IMG/VR virus record: IMGVR_UViG_2617271008_000003
Span: 1 to 64,000 of that record
Reading direction: 5' to 3' (one strand)
Origin: a virus
Length of the DNA: 64,000 nt
The notes beneath the pieces were generated by a model, which saw nothing but the letters and a program-made list of their open reading frames with translations, was not told the DNA's origin and did not search any database. A program made the position numbers and the translations under genes. This document shows, one piece after another, positions 2,353 through 60,147 of the stretch. The first letter of the stretch is position 1. Each line of letters starts with the position of its first letter.

Positions 2353-3642
2353 TCAAATGTTTGTCTGACCTCGGTAAGTCTTAGTGAGATCGAAATTTAC
2401 AGATCGCCCGCGCGAAAGAGCGAGATTGGCGAGGCGTGCGCGATTTTGATGGCTGGCGGTGGCTTGGCGCAGCAATCCAAAATATGAATTACTCACAGCG
2501 AGAAAGTTGTCGAGTGATGTGGCCGCTGCTCGCCGGAGCGCTTCGTTACGCGTGCGCTTCCGTGTTTCTCGGCGCCAGGGTTTGATCACCTGGCCGACGA
2601 AATCGATGCCGCGGTCAATCGGTTGAAGAATGGTCTTGCGCGAGTTGATCTGCACTCCGAGGCGCGACGGCAGAAACGCAGTCACATTGGCGAGGATCTC
2701 GTTCAACCGCGCCGGCGACTCATGCAGGAACACGAAATCATCGACGTAGCGGATGTAGTGGCGCGCGCCGAGCACATGTTTGGCATGCTGGTCGAGCACG
2801 TCAAGATAGACGTTCGCGAAGAACTGGCTCGATAGGTTGCCGATCGGTAAGCCGAGGTGGTCAGCCTGCCGAAGTAGTCGTTTATGGGGCGGCACTAGCT
2901 TCAGCATCCATGGATCGCCATGGAATTCGAAGTCGCCCCGTGGATCGTGCATCAGCACGCGCGCGGTCAGATCGCGCCAGAACGGCTCGGAGATCTTCGT
3001 GAGCAACAGATCGAGCAAGATTGGCTTGTCGATACTGACGAAGAAGTTCGCGAGGTCGCACTTCAAGTAGAACGCCGGCCGCGACCAGTTCTGCGTGATC
3101 GAGCGAACCTTTGATTCGAGGCGGCGGGCGGCATAGAGGGTGCCGCGCCCCTTGATACATGCGCAGGAATCGGCGATGAATGCGCGCTCGAAGTGTGGCC
3201 CTATTCGGTTGTACAGCAGGTGGTGCACGATGCGGTCGCGAAACGCAGCAGCCCATACCTCGCGCGGTTTCGGTCGCGTAATTACGAAGCACTTCGATCG
3301 GCCGGGGGCATAGGTGCCGCTGACCAGCTCGTCGTACAGGCGGCGCAAGTTGCGTTCGAGTCGGATCTCGAACGACAGCGCCGCATTGGAATTTCTCTTT
3401 GTTCGCCGGCAGTCCAGATATGCCTCGACCAGCTCGGCGAACGAAATCGACCCTCGATCTGCGGACGGCTCGGGCTCGGAACTCGTTGTCCTGTCGGTCG
3501 TCGTCCTGGTAACCGTTGTTGAAGTTCTGATACCACGCCCAGCCGGATGTATCGTGCTATCTACGTCGCCTGCCCGATTATTCGGGCAGGAAACTGCGCT
3601 GGACCTATCCGCCAACTGGCGGCCGGTATCCTCATTGCGCAT
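2353..3642 (-). CDS. Diversity-generating retroelement reverse transcriptase
   Basis: RT motifs LPIGNLSSQFFANVYL (the DGR-specific ...SQ variant) and YVDDFVF (YxDD box). N-terminal region aligns to Brt-like DGR RTs (LVEAYLDCRRTKR..YAPGRSKCFVITRPKPREV..FRDRIVHH). True start uncertain: the maximal ORF runs to 3795 through the template repeat, and there is no ATG, GTG or TTG in frame near the conserved N-terminus. Confidence 0.85.
   Translation of the reverse strand: MRNEDTGRQLADRSSAVSCPNNRAGDVDSTIHPAGRGIRTSTTVTRTTTDRTTSSEPEPSADRGSISFAELVEAYLDCRRTKRNSNAALSFEIRLERNLRRLYDELVSGTYAPGRSKCFVITRPKPREVWAAAFRDRIVHHLLYNRIGPHFERAFIADSCACIKGRGTLYAARRLESKVRSITQNWSRPAFYLKCDLANFFVSIDKPILLDLLLTKISEPFWRDLTARVLMHDPRGDFEFHGDPWMLKLVPPHKRLLRQADHLGLPIGNLSSQFFANVYLDVLDQHAKHVLGARHYIRYVDDFVFLHESPARLNEILANVTAFLPSRLGVQINSRKTILQPIDRGIDFVGQVIKPWRRETRKRTRNEALRRAAATSLDNFLAVSNSYFGLLRQATASHQNRARLANLALSRGRSVNFDLTKTYRGQTNI
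3459..3547 (-). repeat. DGR template repeat (TR)
   Basis: ~89 bp copy of the VR sequences. On the plus strand it carries T at every position where the two VR copies vary, which is A on the coding minus strand. It codes AWYQNFNNGYQDDDRQDN, rich in AAC codons. Confidence 0.85.
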
Positions 3643-3688
3643 GGCGGTGGCCTCGTGAGCCAGCGGCACGACCAGATTGATATTTCGC

Positions 3689-4066
3689 TCAGTCATGGCG
3701 GCCTTGACCTTCATGAAGCGGGCGACGTTCTGTGGACTTCTTCCATCCATTGGCCTGTTTCCCGATACTCGTCGTCTGCTCGATCGCGCCAGCATAGGCC
3801 GCGCGCGCGATAAGACGCTTGTCCATGCCGAGGCGAAGCAACAGTTCTATCACTTGGAGGCGCTCAAGCAATTCGGCGAGATGCGGCGACTTGTCGGCCG
3901 CGACGTTCGCGCGGAACACCAGCACCATGATATCGATGCATTCGATCGTGATCTTCTCGCCGATGGTGCGCTTGAAGTCGCGAGGCATGTTCTTGACCAC
4001 GTCGGTGACAGTATCGAGCAGCGCATATGCCGCTCGATATATCGGCAGTTGGGTATGGATGGCCAC
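3689..4066 (-). CDS. avd: DGR accessory variability determinant (Avd-like four-helix-bundle protein)
   Basis: 125 aa basic helical protein lying between the target genes and the TR. Resembles the four-helix-bundle (TIGR02436/bAvd) family. Confidence 0.65.
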   Translation of the reverse strand: MAIHTQLPIYRAAYALLDTVTDVVKNMPRDFKRTIGEKITIECIDIMVLVFRANVAADKSPHLAELLERLQVIELLLRLGMDKRLIARAAYAGAIEQTTSIGKQANGWKKSTERRPLHEGQGRHD

Positions 4067-4080
4067 GGTGGATTAAATAA

Positions 4081-4545
4081 TCAAATTACTGAAGGGAGAA
4101 ACCTGCGGACGGCTCGGGCTCGGAACTCGTCGCCCTGCCGGCCGCCGTCCTGGTAACCGTAGTCGAAGTTCTGACACCACGCCCAGCCGGAATTTGACTC
4201 ATATACTTCGGCCGACCAGTACCATGCCGATTCGAACTCGTCGCGTAGGTTCGTGAACAGGAGCGATTGCTCGCGACGTGTAGGCAACTCACCACCTCGC
4301 TCGGCCGCCCATTTCTTGGCCGATTCCCAGTTGACCTCGTCGGCACCGCCCGGCAGCAGGATGACGTAGTGCGCGACCAATCCATCGTTGTTGAGGATTG
4401 CGCCGGCAACGCGTTCGCCAGCAGCGAGTGGAATTGTGACTGCGGGAATGCGCAGTTCGGTGGCAGTGGGCTGCTTCTTGAATTGTTCGATGAGCGCGCT
4501 GATACGAGCGTGTTCGGCCTCGATGGAGGCAAGCGTGATGGTCAT
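4081..4545 (-). CDS. DGR target protein B, DUF1566 / C-type-lectin (FGE-like) fold, VR at C-terminus
   Basis: 154 aa. C-terminal GGELPTRREQ..YWSAEV..SGWAWCQNFDYGYQDGGRQGDEFRARAVRRF matches the DUF1566 end (WRLPT..YWSST..AW..VRCVR). The variable repeat covers the last ~30 codons. Confidence 0.8.
   Translation of the reverse strand: MTITLASIEAEHARISALIEQFKKQPTATELRIPAVTIPLAAGERVAGAILNNDGLVAHYVILLPGGADEVNWESAKKWAAERGGELPTRREQSLLFTNLRDEFESAWYWSAEVYESNSGWAWCQNFDYGYQDGGRQGDEFRARAVRRFLPSVI
4103..4192 (-). repeat. DGR variable repeat VR-B
   Basis: Differs from the TR at 8 positions, all at TR adenines on the coding strand (A to G, T or C). Confidence 0.85.
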
Positions 4546-4575
4546 TGCGATGCTCCGTTGTGAATGGATGAAGGG

Positions 4576-4938
4576 TTAAATCGACAATCTGCGGACGGCT
4601 CGGGCTCGGAACTCGTTGTCCTGTCGGTCGTCGTCCTGGTAACCGCCGTCGAAGTACTGACACCACGCCCAGCCGGAATAGCCAGGATCGGTATCCGGTG
4701 TGTTCGACCAGTACGCTTCAGCCTGAAACTGGTCGCGGTTCTGCTCGTAGGCGATCACGAGCTCGGCGCGGGTCGGAAGGTCGCCGCCGATGCTCTTTGC
4801 CCAGTCGAGCTGTGCCTGCCACGAAGCATCGTCGTTGTCGCCGGGCAGGAGAATCGTGTGCGTCACGTCGCCAGCGGCGTTGACGAAGCCGCAGAGGTAG
4901 ATCTCACCTTCGGCGAGCGGGGGAATCTGGATTTGCAT
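4576..4938 (-). CDS. DGR target protein A, DUF1566 / C-type-lectin fold, VR at C-terminus
   Basis: 120 aa. GGDLPTRAELVIAY..YWSNTPDTDPGYSGWAWCQYFDGGYQDDDRQDNEFRARAVRRLSI. SD AGGAGA before the ATG. Confidence 0.8.
   Translation of the reverse strand: MQIQIPPLAEGEIYLCGFVNAAGDVTHTILLPGDNDDASWQAQLDWAKSIGGDLPTRAELVIAYEQNRDQFQAEAYWSNTPDTDPGYSGWAWCQYFDGGYQDDDRQDNEFRARAVRRLSI
4589..4678 (-). repeat. DGR variable repeat VR-A
   Basis: Differs from the TR at 5 positions, all at TR adenines. The 3' 45 nt on the coding strand (IMH-like, GC-rich) are identical to the TR. Confidence 0.85.
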
Positions 4939-5023
4939 GTTTCATCTCCTAGTAAAATGCTGCGTCAATGAAGTCACTGGTATGAATTCAATTTATGGAA
5001 CGTTTCAGCTTAGATTTGCTTAC

Positions 5024-5233
5024 TCACTTGCCGTCCTCCTCGGCCCGCGCGAAGTCCGCTATCTTTCGGGCAAGTTCTTCGTCGTCCATGCCGAGCGCGC
5101 GCGCGATTGCCAAGCGCGCTTGACTTGCCTGTGAGCGCGATATCGTGGGCAACCGCATGCCATGTGCTTCGCTGTAGTCCGTGACGTGCGCCCGGATGTA
5201 GTCGCAGGCTTCGGTGTATGGGTATCTGCTCAC
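5024..5233 (-). CDS. Hypothetical small phage protein
   Basis: GTG start overlaps the upstream stop (GTGA) inside the repeated GGAGGACGGCAAGTGA coupling motif. Ends ..EEDGK. Confidence 0.45.
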   Translation of the reverse strand: MSRYPYTEACDYIRAHVTDYSEAHGMRLPTISRSQASQARLAIARALGMDDEELARKIADFARAEEDGK

Positions 5234-5876: not shown

Positions 5877-6217
5877 GCTCCACCTCCAGCTTCGGTGATG
5901 CGCGCCCCGATCTCGGCGGCAGCGCGGGTGATGGCGCGGCGAGTGGCGGCGTTCGCGTCCCCGTGCGGCTCCTCGATCGTCGCCCAGCCGTTCATCTCGT
6001 AGAACTGAGCGCTCGAAGAATGGCTGCTCGCATGCACCATCAGACGCAGATGCACCGCCAGCCGCAGCGCGTCGCCGTCGTCGTTGAGGGGGTTCCACTC
6101 GCGCCATACCCCATCGGCGCGCTCGATGTGCCAATGGTTCGGCGTGCCGCGCTGATAATCCGTCCATTCCGCGCCGGCAGCCTTCGCCGCTAGTCGCAAT
6201 AGTTCTTGATCGTTCAA
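5873..6217 (-). CDS. Conserved phage protein (three paralogs in this window)
   Basis: 114 aa MNDQELLRLAAKAAGAEWTDYQRGTPNHWHIERADGVWREWNPLNDDGDALRLAV... The first 55 aa are identical to 30916-31278, and it is related to 11766-12140. TTG start with SD GGAGGTGGATC. Confidence 0.6.
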   Translation of the reverse strand: MNDQELLRLAAKAAGAEWTDYQRGTPNHWHIERADGVWREWNPLNDDGDALRLAVHLRLMVHASSHSSSAQFYEMNGWATIEEPHGDANAATRRAITRAAAEIGARITEAGGGA

Positions 6218-7090: not shown

Positions 7091-7294
7091 TCACGTCAAC
7101 CTCAGATATTCGTTCGTGACGGAATCAAGCTCGTCCTGAGATTCACAGCGATCCGAGCCGCACTCGGCGATGGCATGATTCGCTGCGTCCGTAGCAGCGT
7201 CTCCGGGCCATCCGCGAAGCCGAGCCTCAAGATAGACTTGCCCCCACATGTCAGGTGCGCCGAGTGCCAGCGAGTCAACGATTGGCTTCTTCAC
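7091..7294 (-). CDS. Hypothetical small protein
   Basis: GTG start after SD GGAGG, overlapping the upstream stop (GTGA). Confidence 0.4.
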   Translation of the reverse strand: MKKPIVDSLALGAPDMWGQVYLEARLRGWPGDAATDAANHAIAECGSDRCESQDELDSVTNEYLRLT

Positions 7295-9483
7295 GCTTCG
7301 CCTCCCTTCCCACCCTGCGCGCCCGACACCAGATCGCGCAGGTTCTGCTTTTCCTGCTCGGCGGTTTCGAGCGCATCGCCTTGGTCGAAGCGACCGCCCA
7401 CGAGTGACCATGCAGACGCCAACACCTGCGCCTGCGCCATGATCTCCTCGACGCGCTTGGGCGGGAGCACCGCCTCTCCCGCATCAGCAGGGACGGCGCC
7501 TCGATAGAGCGGCACGACGTGATCGGGCCTCATGTCCGCGATATCCTCGCGATCGAGGTAGACGCTCGCCGGTTTCAGGCTGACGCAATCGAGCGTCATG
7601 TATGCATCCGGCTCGCGCGCCTCGGCCGGTGCGGCGGCCTGCTCGTCTTCGACGATCTTCAACGCTTCGAGCACGTCGAGGAAGAAAACCAGAGGGCCTG
7701 CCTCGTGTTCCTTGCCGTCCCAGTTGTAGCGCTTGAAGGCTGGCATCGAGGCCGGTGCGGCGGCCTGCGCGCGATAAAGCTCGACTTCCATGCGGAGCAC
7801 TTCTGCAAGGCGCTTGACCAGTTCGATCTTGTTGAGCGGGTCATCGGGATGTACGGGATCTTCGCCGCGCAGGGTCACGCAGACATCTGCAAGCGTTTCG
7901 CTCAGTCGGCGGATCACGTAGGCATCCTCCGACTCTTCGGCAGCGTTCGCTTGAGGTGCGGCGGCCTGCGATTCCCGCGCGGCGACCTCGACGGCGCGAG
8001 CGAACTTGGACAACGCAGGATTGATCGGACAGCCCATGATTCGGGCACTGAGGCGCGCGAGGAGGCTGAAATCAAGCTTCGCCGCCCGCTCGTCGGCCGT
8101 GGCCGGGTTCTTTCGCGTGCCATCGTCGATGTCGCACGAGTCCTCCGGACAGCAGACGCCATCGCGGTTCCCTGCGAGGCACACATCGCCGCCGTTCTGG
8201 CAATGCTGCTTCGGCGCTTTCCAGGGCTCGGCCGTGGCCGGCGATACTGCTGCGCGCTCGTTGGCCGCGTCCGCTTCGGAATGAACAACCTGGCTCAAGC
8301 GTTGTTTCAACTCATCAACCATGCGCTGATAGCGGAGCACAGAAGATTCGAGATGCTGGATGATCTTGTCCGCCGGCGGCGATACTGCTGCGTGCATCAC
8401 GATGTCTCTAAGTTCAACAGCCCGTTCAGCGTCTATGAACTTCGCGATTTCGGCTGCGTCGATAGCGGTTCGAAGCGCATTCGCGTCACAAGCATTCAAC
8501 ATTCGGGTGGCCGGCGATACTGCTGCGCGCGCCTCGCGTAATGCTTCCCGGATGGCGTTCTTCACGTTGACGGGATATGCCATGCCGCCGGGACAGTGGG
8601 CATTGGCGATCCAATCGATGCGATCTTCGTCCGTGGCCTCCCCATCAGCTGCGACAGCCTGAGCGGCTATTTCCGGCACCGTCCAATCGCGAGTCGGGCA
8701 GTCTAAGGCTTGCTGGATAGTGCTGGTTGCATCTTGCCCTTCGCCCAATGGCACGGGGCCGAAATCGTGGATCGATGCCACTCTGACCGGCGCGTCGACA
8801 GCCTGAGCGGCCGATTGGACCTCCCCAATGCCGGCGATCTTCATGCTGTCGAAAATCTCGATCGTGCGCGTGTGGGCTTCGGACCAGCAGTCGACAGCCG
8901 ACATTGGCTCGTGAGACTCCGCTGCGCCGTGCGAAGCATCTTCCAATGCGCGCTTGATCGAGCCACGCACGAACCCGTACAGGTCGCGCCGGTCGATCGT
9001 GATCAGGTTCGCCGCGTTATCCGTCTGCGGCTCCGCGACCGGGGCGGCGGGAGCGGCGTCGAGCATGGCGCTCCAAATCTTCTTGAAGCCGGACCAGCCA
9101 TGTTCGTCGTAGGCGAGGTGGCCCGAATCGGCCATCTCGCGGGTGGCCTCGATCGGCACCAGCTTCCACCCCTTCGGTGCGGGCACTCCTGCTCGCGGGG
9201 AGGTGAGAAGTGCGCGGAGATCGGCGACGAGAAGCGGCGTGAAATTGATGGAATGAATTTTCTCTTGGTCGGCGCCTCGAAGAATGGAATATGCATCCAT
9301 GAAAGCTGCCACACGCTTCCGTGCGGCTTCGCGCTGCTCGTCTCGAATCGGGCTGTGTTGCAAAGCAAAAAGTTCGCGGAGGCGCACGAGCGTTTCGCGG
9401 GGGACGCGTGCGATGCCGTTTTCGCTGCTGTCGATCAGGTGGGCGATATCGCGATCCAGATCGGCGGTGGTGTTGTTCGTCAT
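7291..9483 (-). CDS. Large multi-module phage protein with repeated AAAPA / RAAVSPAT linkers
   Basis: 730 aa starting MTNNTTA, like its paralog at 27825. Contains a 50 aa block identical to 27825-29702, and a Cys cluster CCPEDSCD. Confidence 0.55.
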   Translation of the reverse strand: MTNNTTADLDRDIAHLIDSSENGIARVPRETLVRLRELFALQHSPIRDEQREAARKRVAAFMDAYSILRGADQEKIHSINFTPLLVADLRALLTSPRAGVPAPKGWKLVPIEATREMADSGHLAYDEHGWSGFKKIWSAMLDAAPAAPVAEPQTDNAANLITIDRRDLYGFVRGSIKRALEDASHGAAESHEPMSAVDCWSEAHTRTIEIFDSMKIAGIGEVQSAAQAVDAPVRVASIHDFGPVPLGEGQDATSTIQQALDCPTRDWTVPEIAAQAVAADGEATDEDRIDWIANAHCPGGMAYPVNVKNAIREALREARAAVSPATRMLNACDANALRTAIDAAEIAKFIDAERAVELRDIVMHAAVSPPADKIIQHLESSVLRYQRMVDELKQRLSQVVHSEADAANERAAVSPATAEPWKAPKQHCQNGGDVCLAGNRDGVCCPEDSCDIDDGTRKNPATADERAAKLDFSLLARLSARIMGCPINPALSKFARAVEVAARESQAAAPQANAAEESEDAYVIRRLSETLADVCVTLRGEDPVHPDDPLNKIELVKRLAEVLRMEVELYRAQAAAPASMPAFKRYNWDGKEHEAGPLVFFLDVLEALKIVEDEQAAAPAEAREPDAYMTLDCVSLKPASVYLDREDIADMRPDHVVPLYRGAVPADAGEAVLPPKRVEEIMAQAQVLASAWSLVGGRFDQGDALETAEQEKQNLRDLVSGAQGGKGGEA

Positions 9484-11604: not shown

Positions 11605-11865
11605 TCACGCACCCCAAACGCGAGGCACAGACATTCCGTCTTGATTGAGGCGGGCGATCACATACGTGGCACCGGCAGCAATGAGCACAGCCACCAGATA
11701 GCCCGCGATAGGGCTACGCTTGTGCAGGCGTTCGAGCAGATCGCCGAGGTAGTCGAAGGGCGTGTTCATGCGGCACCCATGTTCTTGCCGATCTCGGCGG
11801 CAGCGCGAGTGATTGCGCGGCGCAGTGCGGCGCACTGGTCGCCGCGAGTTTCGTGGTGCCAGCAA
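11605..11865 (-). CDS. Hypothetical small membrane protein
   Basis: Hydrophobic C-terminal segment IAGYLVAVLIAAGATYVIA. Confidence 0.3.
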   Translation of the reverse strand: MLAPRNSRRPVRRTAPRNHSRCRRDRQEHGCRMNTPFDYLGDLLERLHKRSPIAGYLVAVLIAAGATYVIARLNQDGMSVPRVWGA

Positions 11866-12140
11866 ATGAACTCAGCCACATCGGGGGCGAGTTTCTGCTT
11901 GTCGTATGTCTCGCCCACGCTTGCGTAGCTGCCGTAAGCTCCGACGATGAGATTCAGCTTCACCGCCAGCCGCAGCGCGTCGCCATCGTCCGCTAGCGGA
12001 TTCCAGAGGGAATTAGCATCCCAATGTTCCCCCTTTACTTTGTCCGCCGAAAGGCGATACATGCCTTTCCAGAATTCATTCCACCGCAGGTCAAGCCCCG
12101 CCGCCTTCGCCGCCAGTTCCAACAGTTCTCGATCGTTCAT
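11766..12140 (-). CDS. Conserved phage protein, paralog of 5873-6217
   Basis: MNDRELLELAAKAAG...NPLADDGDALRLAVKL... Start at the internal ATG overlapping the upstream stop (ATGA). Confidence 0.5.
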   Translation of the reverse strand: MNDRELLELAAKAAGLDLRWNEFWKGMYRLSADKVKGEHWDANSLWNPLADDGDALRLAVKLNLIVGAYGSYASVGETYDKQKLAPDVAEFICWHHETRGDQCAALRRAITRAAAEIGKNMGAA

Positions 12141-21678: not shown

Positions 21679-22888
21679 GGAAACGCTGATTAATAGGCAA
21701 ACGCGCAAGCTTGTCGGCCGTGCTGACGCGCAAATTCCGGATGCCGAAGTGAATCGCAGCGAATTCGGGGAAGTTTGCCCCGGGAAAGCGCCTCATTTCC
21801 TGCATTTTTCATACACGTGACGGACTACTGCCATGAACCGAGCGCAACCGATTTCGCGCGATCACCAAGTTCGCCAAAGCGAACAGGCTGAACAGTTGCG
21901 CCGTGTTCTTCGCCAGTCCCTTGTAGCGCACCTTGCGATGACGGAACAGGTTCTTGACGACGTGAAACGGATGCTCGACCCGCGCGCGAATTTGTGCCTT
22001 GGTTCGCTCGAGCGCGATCACCAGATCCTTCAGTGCACCATCCTGCATCGCCTTGATCTTTCCTCGCTTGGCCGCCACGCGCCACTTCACCGACAGGTCC
22101 TTCATTTCATTGCGCTTGTCTACGCCGATGTAGCCCGCGTCGCCGAACGCTTCTTGCTCGTGACCATGCAACAGCGCGTGCGCTTGCGAAACATCCGACA
22201 CGTTGGCGGACGTGCCGACCACGCTGTGAACCAGCCCCGAATCGGCATCGACGCCGATGTGCGCCTTCATGCCGAAGTGCCACTCGTTGCCTTTCTTCGT
22301 TTGATGCATGTCCGGATCGCGACGCTTCTCGGCGTTCTTGGTCGACGACGGCGCTTCGATGATCGTCGCGTCGACCAGCGTGCCTTCCTTCATCATCAGC
22401 CCGCGTTCGCACAGCGAGGTGCCAATCTCGTCGAACAGTTTGCGCGTCAGGTCATGTTCAAGCAGCAGGCGCCGGAACTTCAGCAGCGTGGTCGCATCCG
22501 GCACGGTCTCGACGGCCAGATCTATCCCGGCGAAGGCTCGCATCGCGATGCTGTCGTACAGCGCATCCTCCAGCCCTTCGTCCGACAGGCTGTACCACTG
22601 CTGCAGGAAGTAGATTCGAAGCATCCGCTCCAGACCGATCGGCGGGCGGCCACGCTCGCCCTTCGGGTAGTACGGCTCGATTGCCATCAGCAACCGCGAC
22701 CACGGCACCAGCTTCTCCATCTCGTCCAGGAAACGCTGGCGCCGGGTCACGCGCTTCTTGCCCGCGCTTTCCGCTTCCGCAAAGCTCATTTGCCGTTTCA
22801 TCGTCGTGGATTCGTTCCGTGAACTGTCTTCTACAACGTCCTCGGCTACGTCAGCGATGACCGCCGAGCCGGATAAATCAGTGTTTCC
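21679..22888 (-). mobile_element. IS5-family insertion sequence (1210 bp) with CTAG target-site duplication
   Basis: Terminal inverted repeats GGAAACGCTGATTAATAGG (left) and GGAAACACTGATTTATCCGG (right, reverse complement). Flanked by 4-bp CTAG on both sides. Encodes a single DDE transposase. Confidence 0.8.
21809..22801 (-). CDS. IS5-family DDE transposase
   Basis: 330 aa. N-terminal MSFAEAE..RQRFLDEMEKLVPW and C-terminal ..HPFHVVKNLFRHRKVRYKGLAKN are typical of the IS5 family. Confidence 0.9.
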   Translation of the reverse strand: MKRQMSFAEAESAGKKRVTRRQRFLDEMEKLVPWSRLLMAIEPYYPKGERGRPPIGLERMLRIYFLQQWYSLSDEGLEDALYDSIAMRAFAGIDLAVETVPDATTLLKFRRLLLEHDLTRKLFDEIGTSLCERGLMMKEGTLVDATIIEAPSSTKNAEKRRDPDMHQTKKGNEWHFGMKAHIGVDADSGLVHSVVGTSANVSDVSQAHALLHGHEQEAFGDAGYIGVDKRNEMKDLSVKWRVAAKRGKIKAMQDGALKDLVIALERTKAQIRARVEHPFHVVKNLFRHRKVRYKGLAKNTAQLFSLFALANLVIARNRLRSVHGSSPSRV

Positions 22889-23039
22889 CTAGATGCATGA
22901 TGGACGCCGCATCCGGACGTCGTATCTGGCGTATCACCTTCCCTGATAGCCACACGAGATACATAGCATCGTCTCTCGATGGAGCAATTGGCGTCGCGTT
23001 TCGCTGCCGGCTGGCCCGGCTTACCGCTAGGAGCTACGT

Positions 23040-34149: not shown

Positions 34150-34936
34150 AAGGCGATTGAGCCTTGTATCTATTTTTCGGATAATCTCAAAGTATCCCAA
34201 AGGCCGATAAAGCGCGGATTTGGAATATTGCAGTATTCCGGCAGTAGGTTGGTGCCTAGCTCGGAGGTATCGCGCAAAGCGATTAGCCGAGACGCGGATC
34301 AGACATGAGTGCCGCGATCATGGAAAACCGTGTCAGCACGCGATTCCTGTTCTCCAATGAGACACCTCCAGGAAGGCGCGTAGAACATAGCGCGAGACCG
34401 ATGCAAATGGCGACGAGCCGAAAGGCATGCCCTGTCGACCGAAGGTGTTGGCGCGCAACCGTTCTTTGCCGACTGGCTCACGAGACGAGCCTTCTCCCAA
34501 AACCCGGAAACTGCTGGCGAGGCCAGTCGAACGCATCTATTGCGATGAACGGGTCGCCGGGTCTTGGGAGAGCGCAGTATGGCGTCCGGTGGGTGGTGCT
34601 CACCCTCATGCCGGAGCCGCGTATGGAGCCGCAATCCTTAACTGCGGTGACGGGCGGAGAAAATTAGCGTGCCGCCGGTTGGTCTCCGTTATCGGACCGT
34701 TTTCACGCATGCTTTCGTCTAGAGGCCTAGGACGGTGGGTCATGGCTAACGCCTACTCGCAAACTCTGGTTCGAATCCAGAAGGCAGCCGTGAGAGCGAA
34801 TCGCAGTTCGACGGGAGGAATCCCGCACGTTGCGATAGTGCAGGCTGATGCGCGCAAGATAGCCAGAGCCGGTTCGGTGCGGCCGAGGCGAAACCCCGAA
34901 AGCTGGAGATCAGCACCGGCCGCTCTCTCCATAGTT

Positions 34937-35012
34937 GCCGGTTTAGCTCATCAGGTAGAGCGACGGATTTGTAATCCGTAGGCGGTGGGTTCGAGCCCTA
35001 CAGCCGGCACCA
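34937..35012 (+). tRNA. tRNA-Thr (anticodon TGT)
   Basis: Folds as a canonical cloverleaf: 7-bp acceptor, D stem GCTC/GAGC, anticodon stem ACGGA/TCCGT with loop TTTGTAA, T loop TTCGAGC, CCA encoded. Confidence 0.85.
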
Positions 35013-35141
35013 GAATTTCCGGTCTGAACCCGGCGCGATCGGTGGAAAGCCGATCAAGGGGTAGCCCACTGTGCGGGCATCGATGGAAGTGGCGATGTTA
35101 AATGAGCCGCCCCCGGACGCGGCTACCACAACACCATATAC

Positions 35142-35234
35142 GGAAGAGTTAGCCGAATCGGCATAGCGGCAGCGGTCTTGAAAACCGAAGGCCCAGTAAT
35201 GGGTGTGTGAGTTCGAGTCTCACCTCTTCCGCCA
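35142..35234 (+). tRNA. tRNA-Ser (anticodon TGA), type II with long variable arm
   Basis: Perfect 7-bp acceptor GGAAGAG/CTCTTCC, T arm GTGAG-TTCGAGT-CTCAC, anticodon loop CTTGAAA, variable stem GCCCA/TGGGT, CCA encoded. The D arm is slightly irregular. Confidence 0.6.
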
Positions 35235-35239
35235 TCTAT

Positions 35240-35329
35240 GGAAGGTTGCCAGAGAGGCAATGGGTCGGCTTGCTAAGCCGTAGCCGATGCGTAAGCGTCG
35301 CGTGCGTTCGATCCGCACGCCTTCCGCCA
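35240..35329 (+). tRNA. tRNA-Ser (anticodon GCT), type II
   Basis: Acceptor GGAAGGT/GCCTTCC, D stem CCA/TGG, anticodon loop TTGCTAA, T arm GTGCG-TTCGATC-CGCAC, CCA encoded. Confidence 0.6.
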
Positions 35330-35382
35330 CTAAATCGGCCGCGCGATCAGGCGGCCGATGGGCCATAACTGGCAAGAACAAT

Positions 35383-35461
35383 TCCGCGAAATCCGAGCTT
35401 GGTGCACGGACCTGACTGTTAATCAGAGATTAGCTGAGTTCGATCCTCAGACGCGGAGCCA
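35383..35461 (+). tRNA. tRNA-Asn-like (anticodon GTT), possibly degenerate
   Basis: T arm CTGAG-TTCGATC-CTCAG, anticodon loop CTGTTAA, 6 of 7 acceptor pairs, CCA encoded. Overlaps and argues against ORF 35358-35639. Confidence 0.45.
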
Positions 35462-35684
35462 TTTACTAATCCGGATGGCGGCAGGAGCATGGGCGGTGCC
35501 CTTCCTGTTTGCCTGCCGGACCTTCACGCATGCGCTCTTATGCTTCTGCCCCGGCGGAGGCTTCAGTCGGCCGACAGAGAACGCAGTCGTGAAGGCAAAA
35601 CAGAATCGGCCGCGCACTGCGATGGCAGCCTACGGGTAAGTGGGCCGAGAGTTGAACCTTCTTCATTTCGCACAGGGAGCGAGC

Positions 35685-35870
35685 ATGCATTTGACATCTG
35701 ACGACAAAAGCAACGTTATCGGTCTAGCAGCCGCAGCAGCGGCCGAATGGGCCAAAGAAAACGTCAAACGTGGATCTATCGTTGATGGTCCGTCCGACAA
35801 AAGCATTGGGGAAAAGATTGGCGAGATTGTGGCCAACGCCGCCCTTAGCGCCGCGGAGCTGCTGAAGTAA
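35685..35870 (+). CDS. Hypothetical small protein
   Basis: 61 aa from the internal ATG. Alanine-rich. Confidence 0.3.
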   Translation: MHLTSDDKSNVIGLAAAAAAEWAKENVKRGSIVDGPSDKSIGEKIGEIVANAALSAAELLK

Positions 35871-35877
35871 TTCGAAT

Positions 35878-35953
35878 TGCGGGTGTAAGCCAACGGTAGA
35901 CAGCGAGGCTCATAACCTCGAAGCAGCCAGTTCGACTCTGGCCCCCGCAACCA
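35878..35953 (+). tRNA. tRNA-like sequence (anticodon CAT, Met/Ile-like) with defective D arm
   Basis: Good T arm GCCAG-TTCGACT-CTGGC, anticodon stem CGAGG/CCTCG with loop CTCATAA, acceptor 6 of 7 pairs, CCA encoded. The D stem does not pair. Confidence 0.3.
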
Positions 35954-37417: not shown

Positions 37418-37900
37418 ATGGCAACGCTCAAAGATGACGTGAAAGCGTTCATCGTTCGGGCGCTGGCGTGTTTCGATTCCCCCACCGATGTTTGTCGGCA
37501 AGTCAAAGAGGAATTCGGCATTGAAGTCACGCGCCAGCAAGTCTCGGCGTATGACCCGAATCGGCGTATCGCGAAGGATCTCAGCGACAAATGGCGACTA
37601 ATCTTCGAAGAGACCCGCAAGAAGTTTCTGGCCGACGTGTCGACCATTCCCATCGCTAGTCAGGCATTCCGTCTCCGCGCACTGAATCGGATGTATGAGC
37701 GTGTCCAAGGTCAGGGAAACATGGCGCTGGCCGCTCAATTGATTGAACAGGCCGCCAAAGAATCGGGTGGCGCATTCACCAATCGTCGGGAAATGACTGG
37801 CAAAGATGGTTCTCCTTTGATCCCGACGAATCCACAAGAAATGACCGATGAACAACTCGCTGCCATCGCCGCAACAGGCAGCGCGCGAGCTGCTGATTAG
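37418..37900 (+). CDS. Putative terminase small subunit (DUF2280-like)
   Basis: 160 aa protein immediately upstream of, and overlapping, the large terminase. N-terminal DNA-binding-like region. Confidence 0.45.
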   Translation: MATLKDDVKAFIVRALACFDSPTDVCRQVKEEFGIEVTRQQVSAYDPNRRIAKDLSDKWRLIFEETRKKFLADVSTIPIASQAFRLRALNRMYERVQGQGNMALAAQLIEQAAKESGGAFTNRREMTGKDGSPLIPTNPQEMTDEQLAAIAATGSARAAD

Positions 37901-39392
37901 GAGGAAGGCCCGGGATAGCGTTCTCGATTACGCGAACGCTATTGAAATCCCGGGTAAGCCTGCTGGCGAAGATCCGGATACGGAATTCTTCGAGCTTATC
38001 GAAACGACGATGGCTCAGCATCATCGCCTCATCCTTGAGACGATGGAGCGCATCAGCAAGACGCCGCACGGCCGGGCAATGTTCTTCATGCCGCCTGGCT
38101 CGGCTAAGAGCACGTATGCATCGGTTGTATTCCCTTCTCGTTACTTAGGAGCGGAGAAGAACCGCAAGGTCATTTTGGCCAGCTACGGCGATGACCTGGC
38201 GCGCAAGATGGGTCGCCGCACGCGGTCGATCATCAAGCAGAAGCGGTTCAAAGGAATTTTCGGCTGCGAACTGACTGCCGAATCGTCGGCGGCGCAAGAG
38301 TTTTCGCTGACTAACGGTAGTGAGTACATCGCGACCGGCATTCTCGGTGGCGTGACCGGCAACCGAGCGAACGGCATCATCATCGATGATCCGGTCAAGG
38401 GTCGCGAACAAGCCGACTCGCCGACGATTCGCGATAAGACGTGGGACGCCTATAACGACGATCTGAAGACTCGTCTTATCCCTGGCGGCTGGGTGGTCAT
38501 CATCCAGACGCGCTGGCATGAAGATGATCTTGCTGGCCGCATTTTGCCGGAAGACTGGAAAGGCGAGTCCGGGCCGATCCTCTGTCGCGACGGGAATGTC
38601 TGGGAGGTTGTGTGCCTCCAGGCCCGATGCGAGGTGCAGAACGATCCGCTCGGCCGGAAAATCGGCGAATACCTCTGGCCGCAATGGTTCAGCGAAAAAC
38701 ATTGGGCGCAGTTCGAGAGCAATGTCCGCACGTGGGCATCGCTCTATCAACAGTTGCCCAGGCCGCTCGAAGGAACGCTATTCAAGGTCGAAAACATGCT
38801 GGTCAATGGGGCACCGATCCCATGGCCGCAACGATGCGATTACGTCTTTGCCGTGATGGATTCCGCACTGAAAGCGGGAGACAAAAACGATGGCACAGGC
38901 GTGACCTACTTCGCCCGCAACAGACATATCGGTCACAAGCTGATCATACTCGATTGGGACATCACGCAGATTGAAAGCGATCTGATCGCCGAGTGGTTCC
39001 CCAATGTCATGTCGCGCGTGGAAGAGTTAGCGAGGCTTTGCGGGGCTCGCATGGGCAGCGCTGGCAGCTTCGTAGAGGATAAGGGCAGTGGTATCACCCT
39101 CCTTCAACGAGCTGCACGCAGCGGCTGGCCTGCGCAGGCGATCGACAGCAAATTGACCTCGATGAGCAAGGATGCTCGGGGCACTGGCGTTTCGGACTTT
39201 GTCCATTGCGGCGATGTGAAGATCAGCGAGCACGCATACAACAAGATCGTTGAATACAAAGGCCGCTCGCAAAACCATTTCCTGAGCCAATTCTTCGGGT
39301 ATCGGCTCGGCATTCCCAATCAGTCCGATGACCTGTACGACACGGGCGTCTACGGCATAGCAATTGGCCTCGGAGATAGCGACGGCCTCTGA
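37848..39392 (+). CDS. terL: Terminase large subunit
   Basis: 514 aa. ATPase P-loop FMPPGSAKSTYAS. C-terminal nuclease region with conserved acidic residues. Confidence 0.8.
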   Translation: MNNSLPSPQQAARELLIRRKARDSVLDYANAIEIPGKPAGEDPDTEFFELIETTMAQHHRLILETMERISKTPHGRAMFFMPPGSAKSTYASVVFPSRYLGAEKNRKVILASYGDDLARKMGRRTRSIIKQKRFKGIFGCELTAESSAAQEFSLTNGSEYIATGILGGVTGNRANGIIIDDPVKGREQADSPTIRDKTWDAYNDDLKTRLIPGGWVVIIQTRWHEDDLAGRILPEDWKGESGPILCRDGNVWEVVCLQARCEVQNDPLGRKIGEYLWPQWFSEKHWAQFESNVRTWASLYQQLPRPLEGTLFKVENMLVNGAPIPWPQRCDYVFAVMDSALKAGDKNDGTGVTYFARNRHIGHKLIILDWDITQIESDLIAEWFPNVMSRVEELARLCGARMGSAGSFVEDKGSGITLLQRAARSGWPAQAIDSKLTSMSKDARGTGVSDFVHCGDVKISEHAYNKIVEYKGRSQNHFLSQFFGYRLGIPNQSDDLYDTGVYGIAIGLGDSDGL

Positions 39393-49856: not shown

Positions 49857-51179
49857 ATGGCGACCACGATCACGCCCACAATCGTAACGGTCAATACGAC
49901 CGTTACGCGCGCGCCGACTGTCTCGCAGCTTCAGCAAAGTGGCGCGATTGTGTCGGCGGGCGGCACCACTCTGACCGCAGGCACATATCAGTATTGCGGC
50001 ACTCTTTCGGCGGTCACGTCGATTCTCGCGACTCCGCTTGCACTGTCCGGCCTCGTATGGTCGAACGGTGTTGTAACTGCCACTACGTCGGCTGCGCTTT
50101 CCCTGTCTACGGGTCAGACATTCACCACGACCATCGCTGGTGCGACGCCGGCAGGTTACAACGGCACGTTCACGGCCACGGTGACTGGTACGAGCACGTT
50201 CACCTATGCGCTCGCCACGAATCCAGGTAGCGAGACCGTACCGGGCACGTATCTGCCGTCCAATGCTGGGTTCGTCAATAACGCAGCCACAACGTTCTTC
50301 GCACAAGGCACATCGGTTGGTGTGTATGTGCTCGAACTTGGATCGGTAACGACTGCGGCGGCCGGCATTACAGCGCTTCAGACGTGGATCACTGCGAACA
50401 GCAATCCGCAAGTGTTCTATGCGTACCTGCTACCCGCTTCATGGGACGCTGCGTCTTCCGTGGCGCTGAACACGATGACGGCGAACTACGAAAGCCCAAG
50501 CGGGCAGACGTATTTCTTCATCACGACGACCGTTTCGAACCTCCCGAATTACGCATCAAACAAGGCTGTCTACGCTCAGGTTCCGAGCCCGACCAAGGCA
50601 TCAACGGAGCATCAGCTCGCGGCTGATTTCTATCAGTGGCTCGTGAACAATCCGGGTTCTGCGAATCCGTTGGCCCCGATGTCGTTTCGCTTTGTCTTCG
50701 GAGTTACGCCGTGGTCTTCGGTGAATAACCAGACCAACATCAACACGACGCTTACTAACTTCGGCAACCTGATTTCCACCGGTGCAGAAGGCGGCATATC
50801 CACTGCGTGCATTTTCAAAGGCACGACGATGGACGGCGAGCAAGCGGCATGGTGGTACGGCGTCGATTGGTTCCGTATCCAGGTCAAGCAAGCGCTGGCC
50901 AATGCCATCATCAACGGCTCGAACAGCAATCCCCCGCTGCTTTATAACCAAGCGGGCATCAACACGCTGCAAGCCATTGCGCAGAACGTCGGTAACTCCG
51001 CCGTTGTGTTCGGCTGCGCATTGAGTGTCGTCGTGAATGCGGTTCCCTTTGCGACCTACACGCAGCAAAACCCGAACGACTACAACAACGGTATCTACAA
51101 CGGTCTTTCGGCAACGCTGGTCGGTCAAAACGCCTTCCTGTCGATCACCTTCAACCTCGACGCTGTTCAGTTTGCTTGA
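49857..51179 (+). CDS. Putative tail sheath protein
   Basis: 440 aa, directly followed by a tube-sized gene, chaperone pair and tape measure (Mu/P2-like order). Confidence 0.5.
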   Translation: MATTITPTIVTVNTTVTRAPTVSQLQQSGAIVSAGGTTLTAGTYQYCGTLSAVTSILATPLALSGLVWSNGVVTATTSAALSLSTGQTFTTTIAGATPAGYNGTFTATVTGTSTFTYALATNPGSETVPGTYLPSNAGFVNNAATTFFAQGTSVGVYVLELGSVTTAAAGITALQTWITANSNPQVFYAYLLPASWDAASSVALNTMTANYESPSGQTYFFITTTVSNLPNYASNKAVYAQVPSPTKASTEHQLAADFYQWLVNNPGSANPLAPMSFRFVFGVTPWSSVNNQTNINTTLTNFGNLISTGAEGGISTACIFKGTTMDGEQAAWWYGVDWFRIQVKQALANAIINGSNSNPPLLYNQAGINTLQAIAQNVGNSAVVFGCALSVVVNAVPFATYTQQNPNDYNNGIYNGLSATLVGQNAFLSITFNLDAVQFA

Positions 51180-51641: not shown

Positions 51642-51734
51642 TCCCCCTGCGCTGCGGCTAGGACACGCGATCCGAACGCCAGCACCTTACTGGCTGCCGC
51701 AGCCCTTCCTAAGGGCTGACAAAGGTATCAGCAC

Positions 51735-60056: not shown

Positions 60057-60147
60057 TCGGCTCCCGATAGATCGACGGATCGAAAGCGCGTTTCCCTGGA
60101 CGCGCCCTCGGGAGCCCCTTATCCAGGAATTCTCAGGGGAATCCCCT

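Follow-up and report, generated by a model that had tools for sequence, protein, structure and literature searches.

The 64,000-nucleotide (nt) stretch of viral DNA considered here, positions 1 to 64,000 of the IMG/VR record IMGVR_UViG_2617271008_000003 (hereafter referred to as the window), almost certainly harbors a bona fide diversity-generating retroelement (DGR) with a partly eroded template, located close to the integrase, in the early region of a large Burkholderia gladioli prophage of the myovirus type. On the minus strand, the element comprises, in order, two target genes (A and B), avd (accessory variability determinant), the structured RNA RT-15, the template repeat (TR), and the gene of a reverse transcriptase. 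The three repeats, the exclusive adenine bias of their differences, all protein and RNA components, and the conserved reverse transcriptase residues associated with adenine mutagenesis can be read directly from the sequence; transcription, priming, homing, and present-day activity we infer by analogy. A preliminary description of the same DNA had recognized a DGR template with two variable repeats (VRs), adenine-specific mutagenesis, and a 3′ end resembling an initiation of mutagenic homing (IMH) sequence. That reading is supported by the presence of Avd, a DGR-type reverse transcriptase, the C-terminal location of both VRs in lectin-like open reading frames (ORFs), and the existing annotation of the related Burkholderia phage Magia.

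Template and Variable Repeats

A repeat search of the 64-kb window recovers a single family of three 91-nt direct copies at 3457–3547, 4101–4191, and 4587–4677, within 1–2 nt of the positions previously assigned to them. The repeat length is 89–91 nt depending on the reckoning, all copies are on the minus strand, and the copy at 3547..3457 is used as the template (TR); the other two constitute the VRs of target B (VR-B) and target A (VR-A). Aligned base by base, VR-A departs from the TR at TR positions 17, 22, 28, 31, and 32 (window 3531, 3526, 3520, 3517, and 3516), and VR-B at TR positions 17, 28, 31, 47, 50, 54, 59, and 61. The five and eight differences counted in the preliminary description are both recovered, together with a ninth in VR-B (A>G) at TR position 90 (window 3458, VR-B 4102), at the extreme edge of the homology. 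All 13 differences (14/14 with the edge site) are at TR adenines, as had been proposed, while TR positions occupied by C, G, or T take none. The 89-nt TR contains 22 adenines, and the probability that all 10 distinct variable sites would fall on adenines by chance is 1.3e-7. VR-A is identical to the TR over TR positions 33–91 (59 nt).

The substitutions are largely nonsynonymous, with 12 of the 13 altering an amino acid and a CGA>CGG change in VR-B being the sole silent one. Read in the VR frame, codon positions 1 or 2 hold 19 of the 22 adenines in the TR, as well as 9 of the 10 sites that vary. The codon changes listed earlier (TAT>TGT; AAC>TAC, GAC, or GGC; GAC>GGC; CGA>CGG) are all correct, as are the corresponding peptides, WCQYFDGG for VR-A and WCQNFDYG..DGGRQGD for VR-B, against WYQNFNNG..DDDRQDN for the TR. 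The TR had also been said to encode a run of AAC codons. AAC is indeed present, but in only four codons, two of which are adjacent; the other sites that are AAC in relatives read GAC or TAC here. Further VRs were sought in the 64 kb with the 26-nt invariant block (up to 3 mismatches) and with a TR pattern having N at every adenine, and both searches returned exactly the three known copies.

Invariant 3′ Block

The 3′ ends of the three copies share an invariant block of 26–28 nt (GAGTTCCGAGCCCGAGCCGTCCGCAG). Its identity in all copies, high GC content, and IMH-like character agree with the preliminary description, in which its length was overestimated at about 45 nt. The copies part only after ..GCAGA(T), continuing as CGAGGG in the TR, TGTCGA in VR-A, and TTTCTCC in VR-B. 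Profiled site by site over the family, mutagenesis has a sharp 3′ boundary: in roughly the last 21 nt of the homology adenines vary at 0–9%, adenines further 5′ at 40–75% (save those of conserved CAG and GAG codons), and non-adenine sites at about 1%. This distribution matches the published rule that mutagenesis ends just upstream of the IMH (PMC5758913).

Within a locus, the copies of the 21-nt mutation-exempt zone change together. The three copies here and the closest cassette, L087, have TTCCGAGCCCGAGCC, and all copies of Magia-type elements have TTGCGCGCCCGCGCC. Such concerted evolution points to non-mutagenic exchange, or homogenization, among the three copies of a locus. The GC-rich 3′ block shows this concerted behavior across loci L001–L090, reading ..CCGAGCCCGAGCC here and in L087 and ..GCGCGCCCGCGCC in Magia-type elements.

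Target Proteins, Avd, and Reverse Transcriptase

Both VRs are found at the C-terminal ends of the target ORFs, 9 to 20 nt ahead of the stop codon. The targets match Pfam Lcl_C with E values of 5.5e-6 and 2.5e-5, both under the gathering score. A profile of the target family matches the C-terminal domain of Legionella Lcl (8q4e_A, E 0.004), and a search of the PDB with the single target A sequence gave no match. By inspection, no signal peptide or lipobox is apparent in either target. Matches of Avd in the PDB were rejected as spurious, the hits being DARPins aligned to a helical low-complexity stretch.

The best PDB match of the reverse transcriptase is the Bordetella enzyme bRT (8ub7_A, E 1.4e-34). 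Conserved in the alignment are the sequence LPIGNLSSQ, corresponding to the DGR signature [I/V/L]GxxxSQ, the YVDD motif, and the equivalents of bRT residues R74 and I181. The signature was defined, and the two residues were reported to promote adenine mutagenesis, in earlier work (PMC7826257). By these sequence features, the enzyme is a reverse transcriptase of the DGR type.

The start of the reverse transcriptase as called (ATG 3642) lies inside RT-15, and the ORF crosses the TR in frame +1 (window 3441–3642). The part homologous to bRT starts at residue 68, immediately past the TR, and no ATG, GTG, or TTG occurs between the TR and that first bRT-homologous residue. Translation from ATG 3642 would render the TR as a Thr/Arg-rich N-terminal extension. 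The Pseudomonas relatives have an in-frame ATG-ATG inside the TR. Directly downstream of the reverse transcriptase, at 1926–2345 on the minus strand, is a Cys-rich ORF of 139 amino acids (aa) lacking a Pfam match; L087 has a 143-aa ORF at this location.

RT-15 Structured RNA

RT-15 (Rfam RF03018) overlaps the 3′ end of avd and reaches the first bases of the TR, with a 3-nt overlap in the window. It is present in 16 of 16 sampled relatives, its 3′ end lying 0–6 nt from the TR start, and including the window it is found in 17 of 17 loci. The window sequence scores no lower than the relatives do. When the 17 sequences were folded independently with RNAalifold, 49 pairs resulted, 22 of which exhibit compensatory changes. 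The termination of RT-15 at the TR start in all 17 loci argues that RT-15 is the 5′ domain of the DGR RNA in this clade. In loci L007–L077, RT-15 is found at about 3680–3920 of the locus.

No conserved structure was detected 3′ of the TR across 41 clade members (RNAalifold consensus −0.79 kcal/mol, no covariation). In the window and the Burkholderia relatives, the reverse transcriptase coding sequence contains a strong hairpin immediately 3′ of the TR; it was considered as a priming structure and dropped as lineage-specific. The motifs RT-1 to RT-19 have been listed as occurring near reverse transcriptase genes with no assigned role, and RT-10 alone has been tied to a DGR (Weinberg et al. 2017, PMC5737381); in Bordetella phage BPP-1, RT-10 (Sp) lies 3′ of the TR (PMC5737381). 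No mention of RT-15 or RF03018 was found in the literature searched.

Relatives and Family-Wide Evidence

A scan of the clade, with one genome per species, identified at least 223 relatives of the reverse transcriptase, and the best 80 loci were examined. Burkholderia, Paraburkholderia, Cupriavidus, Ralstonia, and Pseudomonas are among the genera represented in these 80, of which 66 have two upstream VRs and five have three. In 76 loci from species-representative genomes, 1862 of 1894 TR–VR mismatches are at TR adenines, and the substitutions divide into 907 A>G, 636 A>T, and 319 A>C. The TR is located between avd and the reverse transcriptase gene in every locus. In five phage relatives, counting both VRs, the differences are restricted to adenines in 19/19, 26/26, 22/22, 21/21, and 26/26 cases.

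Phage pairs of near-identical sequence are especially informative. The records OP650936 and OK094664 have 14 differences in 7075 bp, and 14/14 are inside VR-A; vB_E192a and vB_PL1 have 30 differences in 5624 bp, of which 29 are inside VR-A or VR-B. Because such pairs differ almost solely in their VRs, the DGR of this clade acts on both targets. OP650936 (L004, "Hujiaoplasma phage zrk29-1") and OK094664 (L005, "Shewanella phage vB_Sb_QDWS") are each 47,902 bp long and 99.8% identical over the 7 kb compared. Their cassettes are about 80% identical to those of Burkholderia, and hence the stated hosts look doubtful.

Eroded Template

The TR of the window has lost adenines. Positions of its eroded part (Table 1) that are T or G here are A in the TR of every close relative, and the mutable region retains 18 TR adenines versus 23–24 in all eleven close relatives examined. 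AAC triplets number four in this TR, against a family median of nine; the TR holds only four AAC codons because it has been eroded.

The closest cassette, L087, is from another B. gladioli strain and matches the window at 95.9% of 2701 ungapped bases. From avd through RT-15 to the reverse transcriptase gene, the two differ at only 14 of about 1710 positions (about 0.8%). In the 91 nt of the TR, there are nevertheless seven differences, each pairing an A in L087 with a G or T here, at TR sites 37, 43, 46, 49, 53, 58, and 64 (window 3511, 3505, 3502, 3499, 3495, 3490, and 3484). Outgroup TRs have A at six of the seven sites, and the state of the window TR is therefore derived. All eroded sites (3490–3511, with 4620–4641 on the VR-A side) are inside TR positions 33–91, where VR-A and the TR are identical, and under the family per-site rates the probability that the adenines of this stretch would all be unchanged in VR-A is 0.006. 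The simplest reading is that six TR adenines were overwritten with VR-A bases by non-mutagenic gene conversion from VR-A to the TR. With the eroded TR, each target could in theory take about 1.3e10 protein forms rather than about 4.9e13, an approximately 3,700-fold loss, and a stop codon is unreachable by adenine substitution in either version of the TR.

At each of the six sites VR-B has the base of the eroded TR, and its differences from the TR are restricted to the adenines that remain. The agreement at TR positions 46, 49, and 58 is not common to the VR-B of L087 (rough P of 0.02 for coincidence) and hints at homing into VR-B after the erosion. As a proof of such homing VR-B was downgraded, since at three of the six the base is one that recurs in all VRs, probably as a result of selection, and the argument thus rests on the other three sites. 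VR turnover relative to L087 was likewise rejected as a proof of recent activity. The target-gene scaffolds are about 9% divergent versus about 0.8% for avd through the reverse transcriptase, and hence the target module may have a separate history.

In one further locus of the family, L068, the TR has only 13 adenines, and adenines account for only 4 of the 10 TR–VR mismatches. This locus is probably a decayed DGR and illustrates that erosion can go further.

Proposed Mechanism and Alternative Explanations

By analogy to BPP-1, the operon would be transcribed on the minus strand, and the reverse transcriptase–Avd complex would bind the RNA holding the RT-15 domain and the TR. The RNA would then be reverse-transcribed with random nucleotides incorporated opposite template adenines, and the resulting complementary DNA (cDNA) would replace the homologous VR at the 3′ end of each paralogous Lcl_C/DUF1566 gene, with the invariant GC-rich 3′ block and the 5′ homology TCCGGCTGGGCGTGG serving as anchors. 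Up to 14 codons per target could be recoded in this manner, with no stop codon possible.

Several observations weigh against this explanation. The structure model of the target is of moderate confidence only, with a predicted local distance difference test (pLDDT) score of 68 overall and below 50 in the VR loop, and Foldseek against the PDB gave nothing significant (best E 0.36). An exact look-up of the Avd protein returned the source genome only, and an exact 64-nt pattern of the TR plus flank had no match among viral contigs. The five changes in VR-A and eight in VR-B are few by the standard of the family (median 12, minimum 5). The repeat contains no mismatch between IMH and IMH*, and when the 110 nt beginning with the IMH-like block were folded as DNA, in the window and five relatives, no conserved BPP-1-like hairpin or cruciform emerged after either VR; the directionality features of BPP-1 are therefore not visible here.

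Some of these points would suit a relic, that is, a DGR once active that no longer diversifies in this strain and whose repeats are frozen footprints. The small number of TR–VR differences relative to the family median would be expected of such an element, as would the TR reduced to 18 mutable adenines and the identity of VR-A and the TR over 59 nt, and the exact Avd and TR-plus-flank searches gave no sister genome that could show turnover. Nonetheless, all ORFs are intact, the catalytic and adenine-mutagenesis residues of the reverse transcriptase are conserved, RT-15 scores at the level of the relatives, and the agreement of VR-B with the eroded TR at six sites, three of them informative (rough P 0.02), suggests homing after the erosion. 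A relic is consequently considered improbable, and this copy is likely still active, to judge from its sequence. Far less credible is the notion that the copies are ordinary paralogous repeats that drift apart through point mutation and recombination, reverse transcription playing no part. The targets are true paralogues with 47% identity, and some non-mutagenic exchange does seem to occur, yet the adenine exclusivity (P of about 1e-7 here, 1862/1894 in the family) is not accommodated, nor is a TR that is non-coding in the VR frame and lies between avd and the reverse transcriptase gene in every locus, nor are near-identical phages that differ only in their VRs. The base-specific pattern effectively refutes this explanation.

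A different question is how the TR was eroded. Instead of gene conversion from VR-A, mutagenized cDNA may have entered the TR itself. The copies match right up to where the homology stops, no IMH* mismatch lying within it, and the TR accordingly looks like a possible target; the six or seven TR changes are, moreover, all at adenines and in the 3′ part, as expected if cDNA invades at the 3′ block, with resolution at a 5′ point that varies. Such self-homing, however, needs a second, non-mutagenic event to account for the identity of VR-A and the TR over 59 nt, in which 10 adenines are unchanged (P 0.006). The acquired TR bases also encode Tyr, Asp, and Arg, which recur in the expressed VRs of relatives, and this is more in line with a copied, selected VR than with random cDNA. 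Self-homing with a faithful copy afterwards is less parsimonious than VR-A conversion and is regarded as rather doubtful.

Comparison with Known Systems

Burkholderia phages Magia (MT701587 / NC_070954), vB_E192a, and vB_PL1 share with the window the order target A, target B, avd, TR, and reverse transcriptase, at 80–81% nucleotide identity over about 2.5 kb (80.6% for the cassette versus Magia). They have equal repeat length, the 3′ end ..GTCCGCAGAT, and an adenine-only bias in both VRs, and in each case the DGR is in the integrase-proximal early region of a temperate phage. The likeness to the window is confined to the cassette. The Magia TR has eight AAC codons plus an AAT and 26 adenines, whereas the TR of the window has four AAC codons and 22 adenines. 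A "potential DGR" has already been described in the record and announcement of Magia (PMC7883833). The GenBank record names gene 47 alone as a target, but gene 46 also has a VR. Gene 46 (4714–5178 of locus L001) is labeled "hypothetical protein", yet its second VR has 11/11 adenine-only differences.

The DGR of phage BPP-1 (Mtd/Avd/TR/bRT) also employs a reverse transcriptase–Avd pair and a TR, and its VR lies C-terminally in a C-type-lectin fold; mutagenesis is adenine-specific, AAC-type codons yield no stop, and a GC-rich 3′ element is exempt. Its reverse transcriptase is homologous to that of the window (E 1.4e-34), with the equivalents of R74 and I181 kept. However, there are several differences between the two systems. 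The BPP-1 target is a 381-aa tail-fiber protein with a single VR, in contrast to the two stand-alone proteins of 120 and 154 aa here. The conserved RNA structure of BPP-1 (Sp, RT-10) is 3′ of the TR (PMC5737381), whereas here RT-15 is 5′ of the TR and none was detected 3′. Unlike BPP-1, the present element has no IMH/IMH* mismatch in the repeat and no hairpin after the VR, and its TR is inside the reverse transcriptase ORF as called.

With respect to their targets, the closest class is category "d", or CLec2 (Wu et al. 2018; DUF1566 type, e.g., Legionella LdtA), in which the VR likewise falls in a weak DUF1566/Lcl_C match. About half of category "d" are short, domain-only proteins, and two targets are found in 13% of DGRs (PMC5758913). 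The best structural match of the present targets, the C-terminal domain of Legionella Lcl, adds to the CLec2 likeness. LdtA is an exported surface lipoprotein; in contrast, the targets here have no signal peptide or lipobox by inspection and belong to a phage early operon. Roux et al. 2021 contains no text on DUF1566 or prophage targets.

Prophage Context

The host of the prophage is B. gladioli. Target A is 100% identical to the B. gladioli protein DM48_312, and the exact Avd sequence is carried by one assembly, the source, GCA_000756855.1. The window encodes a tyrosine integrase (1–1269), a terminase (37848–39392), portal/protease-like genes, and a tail sheath (49857–51179); on the basis of these genes, the whole window is placed inside a large myovirus-type prophage. 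The DGR (Table 1) lies in the early region close to the integrase, and over 30 kb separate it from the structural genes. Known phages share with the window, at the nucleotide level, only the cassette (about 2368–4943), and the rest of the prophage is unrelated to them. The sharers are Burkholderia phages Magia, vB_E192a, and vB_PL1, as well as the two records with doubtful host labels.

Table 1. Components of the DGR cassette, with positions given in the 64-kb window.
Feature	Position	Strand	Description
DGR reverse transcriptase	2353..3642	-	429 aa as called in the source genome; Pfam RVT_1
TR	3457..3547	-	Reads SGWAWYQNFNNGYQDDDRQDNEFRARAVR in the VR frame; inside the reverse transcriptase ORF as called
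GC-rich IMH-like block	3459..3484	-	Same in VR-B (4103–4128) and VR-A (4589–4614); its adenines are unmutated
Eroded TR part	3490..3511	-	3511, 3505, 3502, 3499, 3495, and 3490 are T or G; A in the TR of every close relative
RT-15 RNA (Rfam RF03018)	3545..3727	-	172 bits vs gathering score 82; full-length match 1–192
avd	3689..4066	-	125 aa, four-helix bundle; Pfam bAvd E 2.7e-13, 50.8 bits vs cut-off 40
Target B	4081..4545	-	154 aa; target A paralogue (47% identity), extra N-terminal helix, C-terminal VR-B
VR-B	4103..4191	-	8 differences from TR: 4175, 4164, 4161, 4145, 4142, 4138, 4133, 4131; all at TR adenines
Target A	4576..4938	-	120 aa, single-domain Lcl_C/DUF1566, C-terminal VR-A
VR-A	4587..4677	-	5 differences from TR: 4661, 4656, 4650, 4647, 4646; all at TR adenines

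Additional features are found elsewhere in the window. An insertion sequence akin to ISBmu23 (21790–22892) is about 84% identical in nucleotide sequence to the copy in Burkholderia phage KS5. A Proteo-phage-1 RNA and four tRNA genes (Thr, Ser, Ser, and Met) are located at 34254–35953, upstream of the terminase, and two int-alpA RNA motifs (51651–51715 and 60060–60128) are in the late-gene region. Three 31-nt repeats spaced by about 137 nt (8227–8530) are within an ORF of 730 aa (7291–9483) with a Mu Gam-like C-terminus, and two further repeat pairs (5907–6082 versus 11788–11990), of 47 and 57 nt and 81–85% identity, are about 5.9 kb apart.

Implications

The DGR as such is ordinary: the DGR family is widespread and has been described, the Magia relative is annotated, and the short, two-target DUF1566/CLec2 class has been cataloged. 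The additions made here are modest, namely the placement of RT-15 at the 5′ flank of a DGR template and a naturally eroded template. The orphan family RT-15 can now be given a place, as the 5′ domain, in the template RNA of a DGR clade counting at least 223 species-level members, and it is found on the side of the TR opposite to Sp of the only mechanistically dissected system. The natural erosion of the template, in turn, indicates that the TR is not perfectly shielded. A further point of interest to specialists is the role of small, signal-less (by inspection), hypervariable lectin-fold proteins in the early region of temperate phages.

A broader proposal, put forward tentatively, is that this large clade of proteobacterial prophage DGRs has an RNA architecture distinct from that of BPP-1, in priming, in the template boundary, and in an imperfect protection of the TR, and that its targets are intracellular conflict binders rather than adsorption proteins. 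The location of RT-15 5′ of the TR, the TR inside the reverse transcriptase frame, and the lack of IMH/IMH* asymmetry point to a differing RNA architecture. If this proposal is correct, the clade would differ from BPP-1 in how it primes, sets the template boundary, and protects the TR, imperfectly so as the erosion shows, and the small, apparently cytoplasmic targets, encoded beside the integrase in the early operon, may serve in phage–host or phage–phage conflict.

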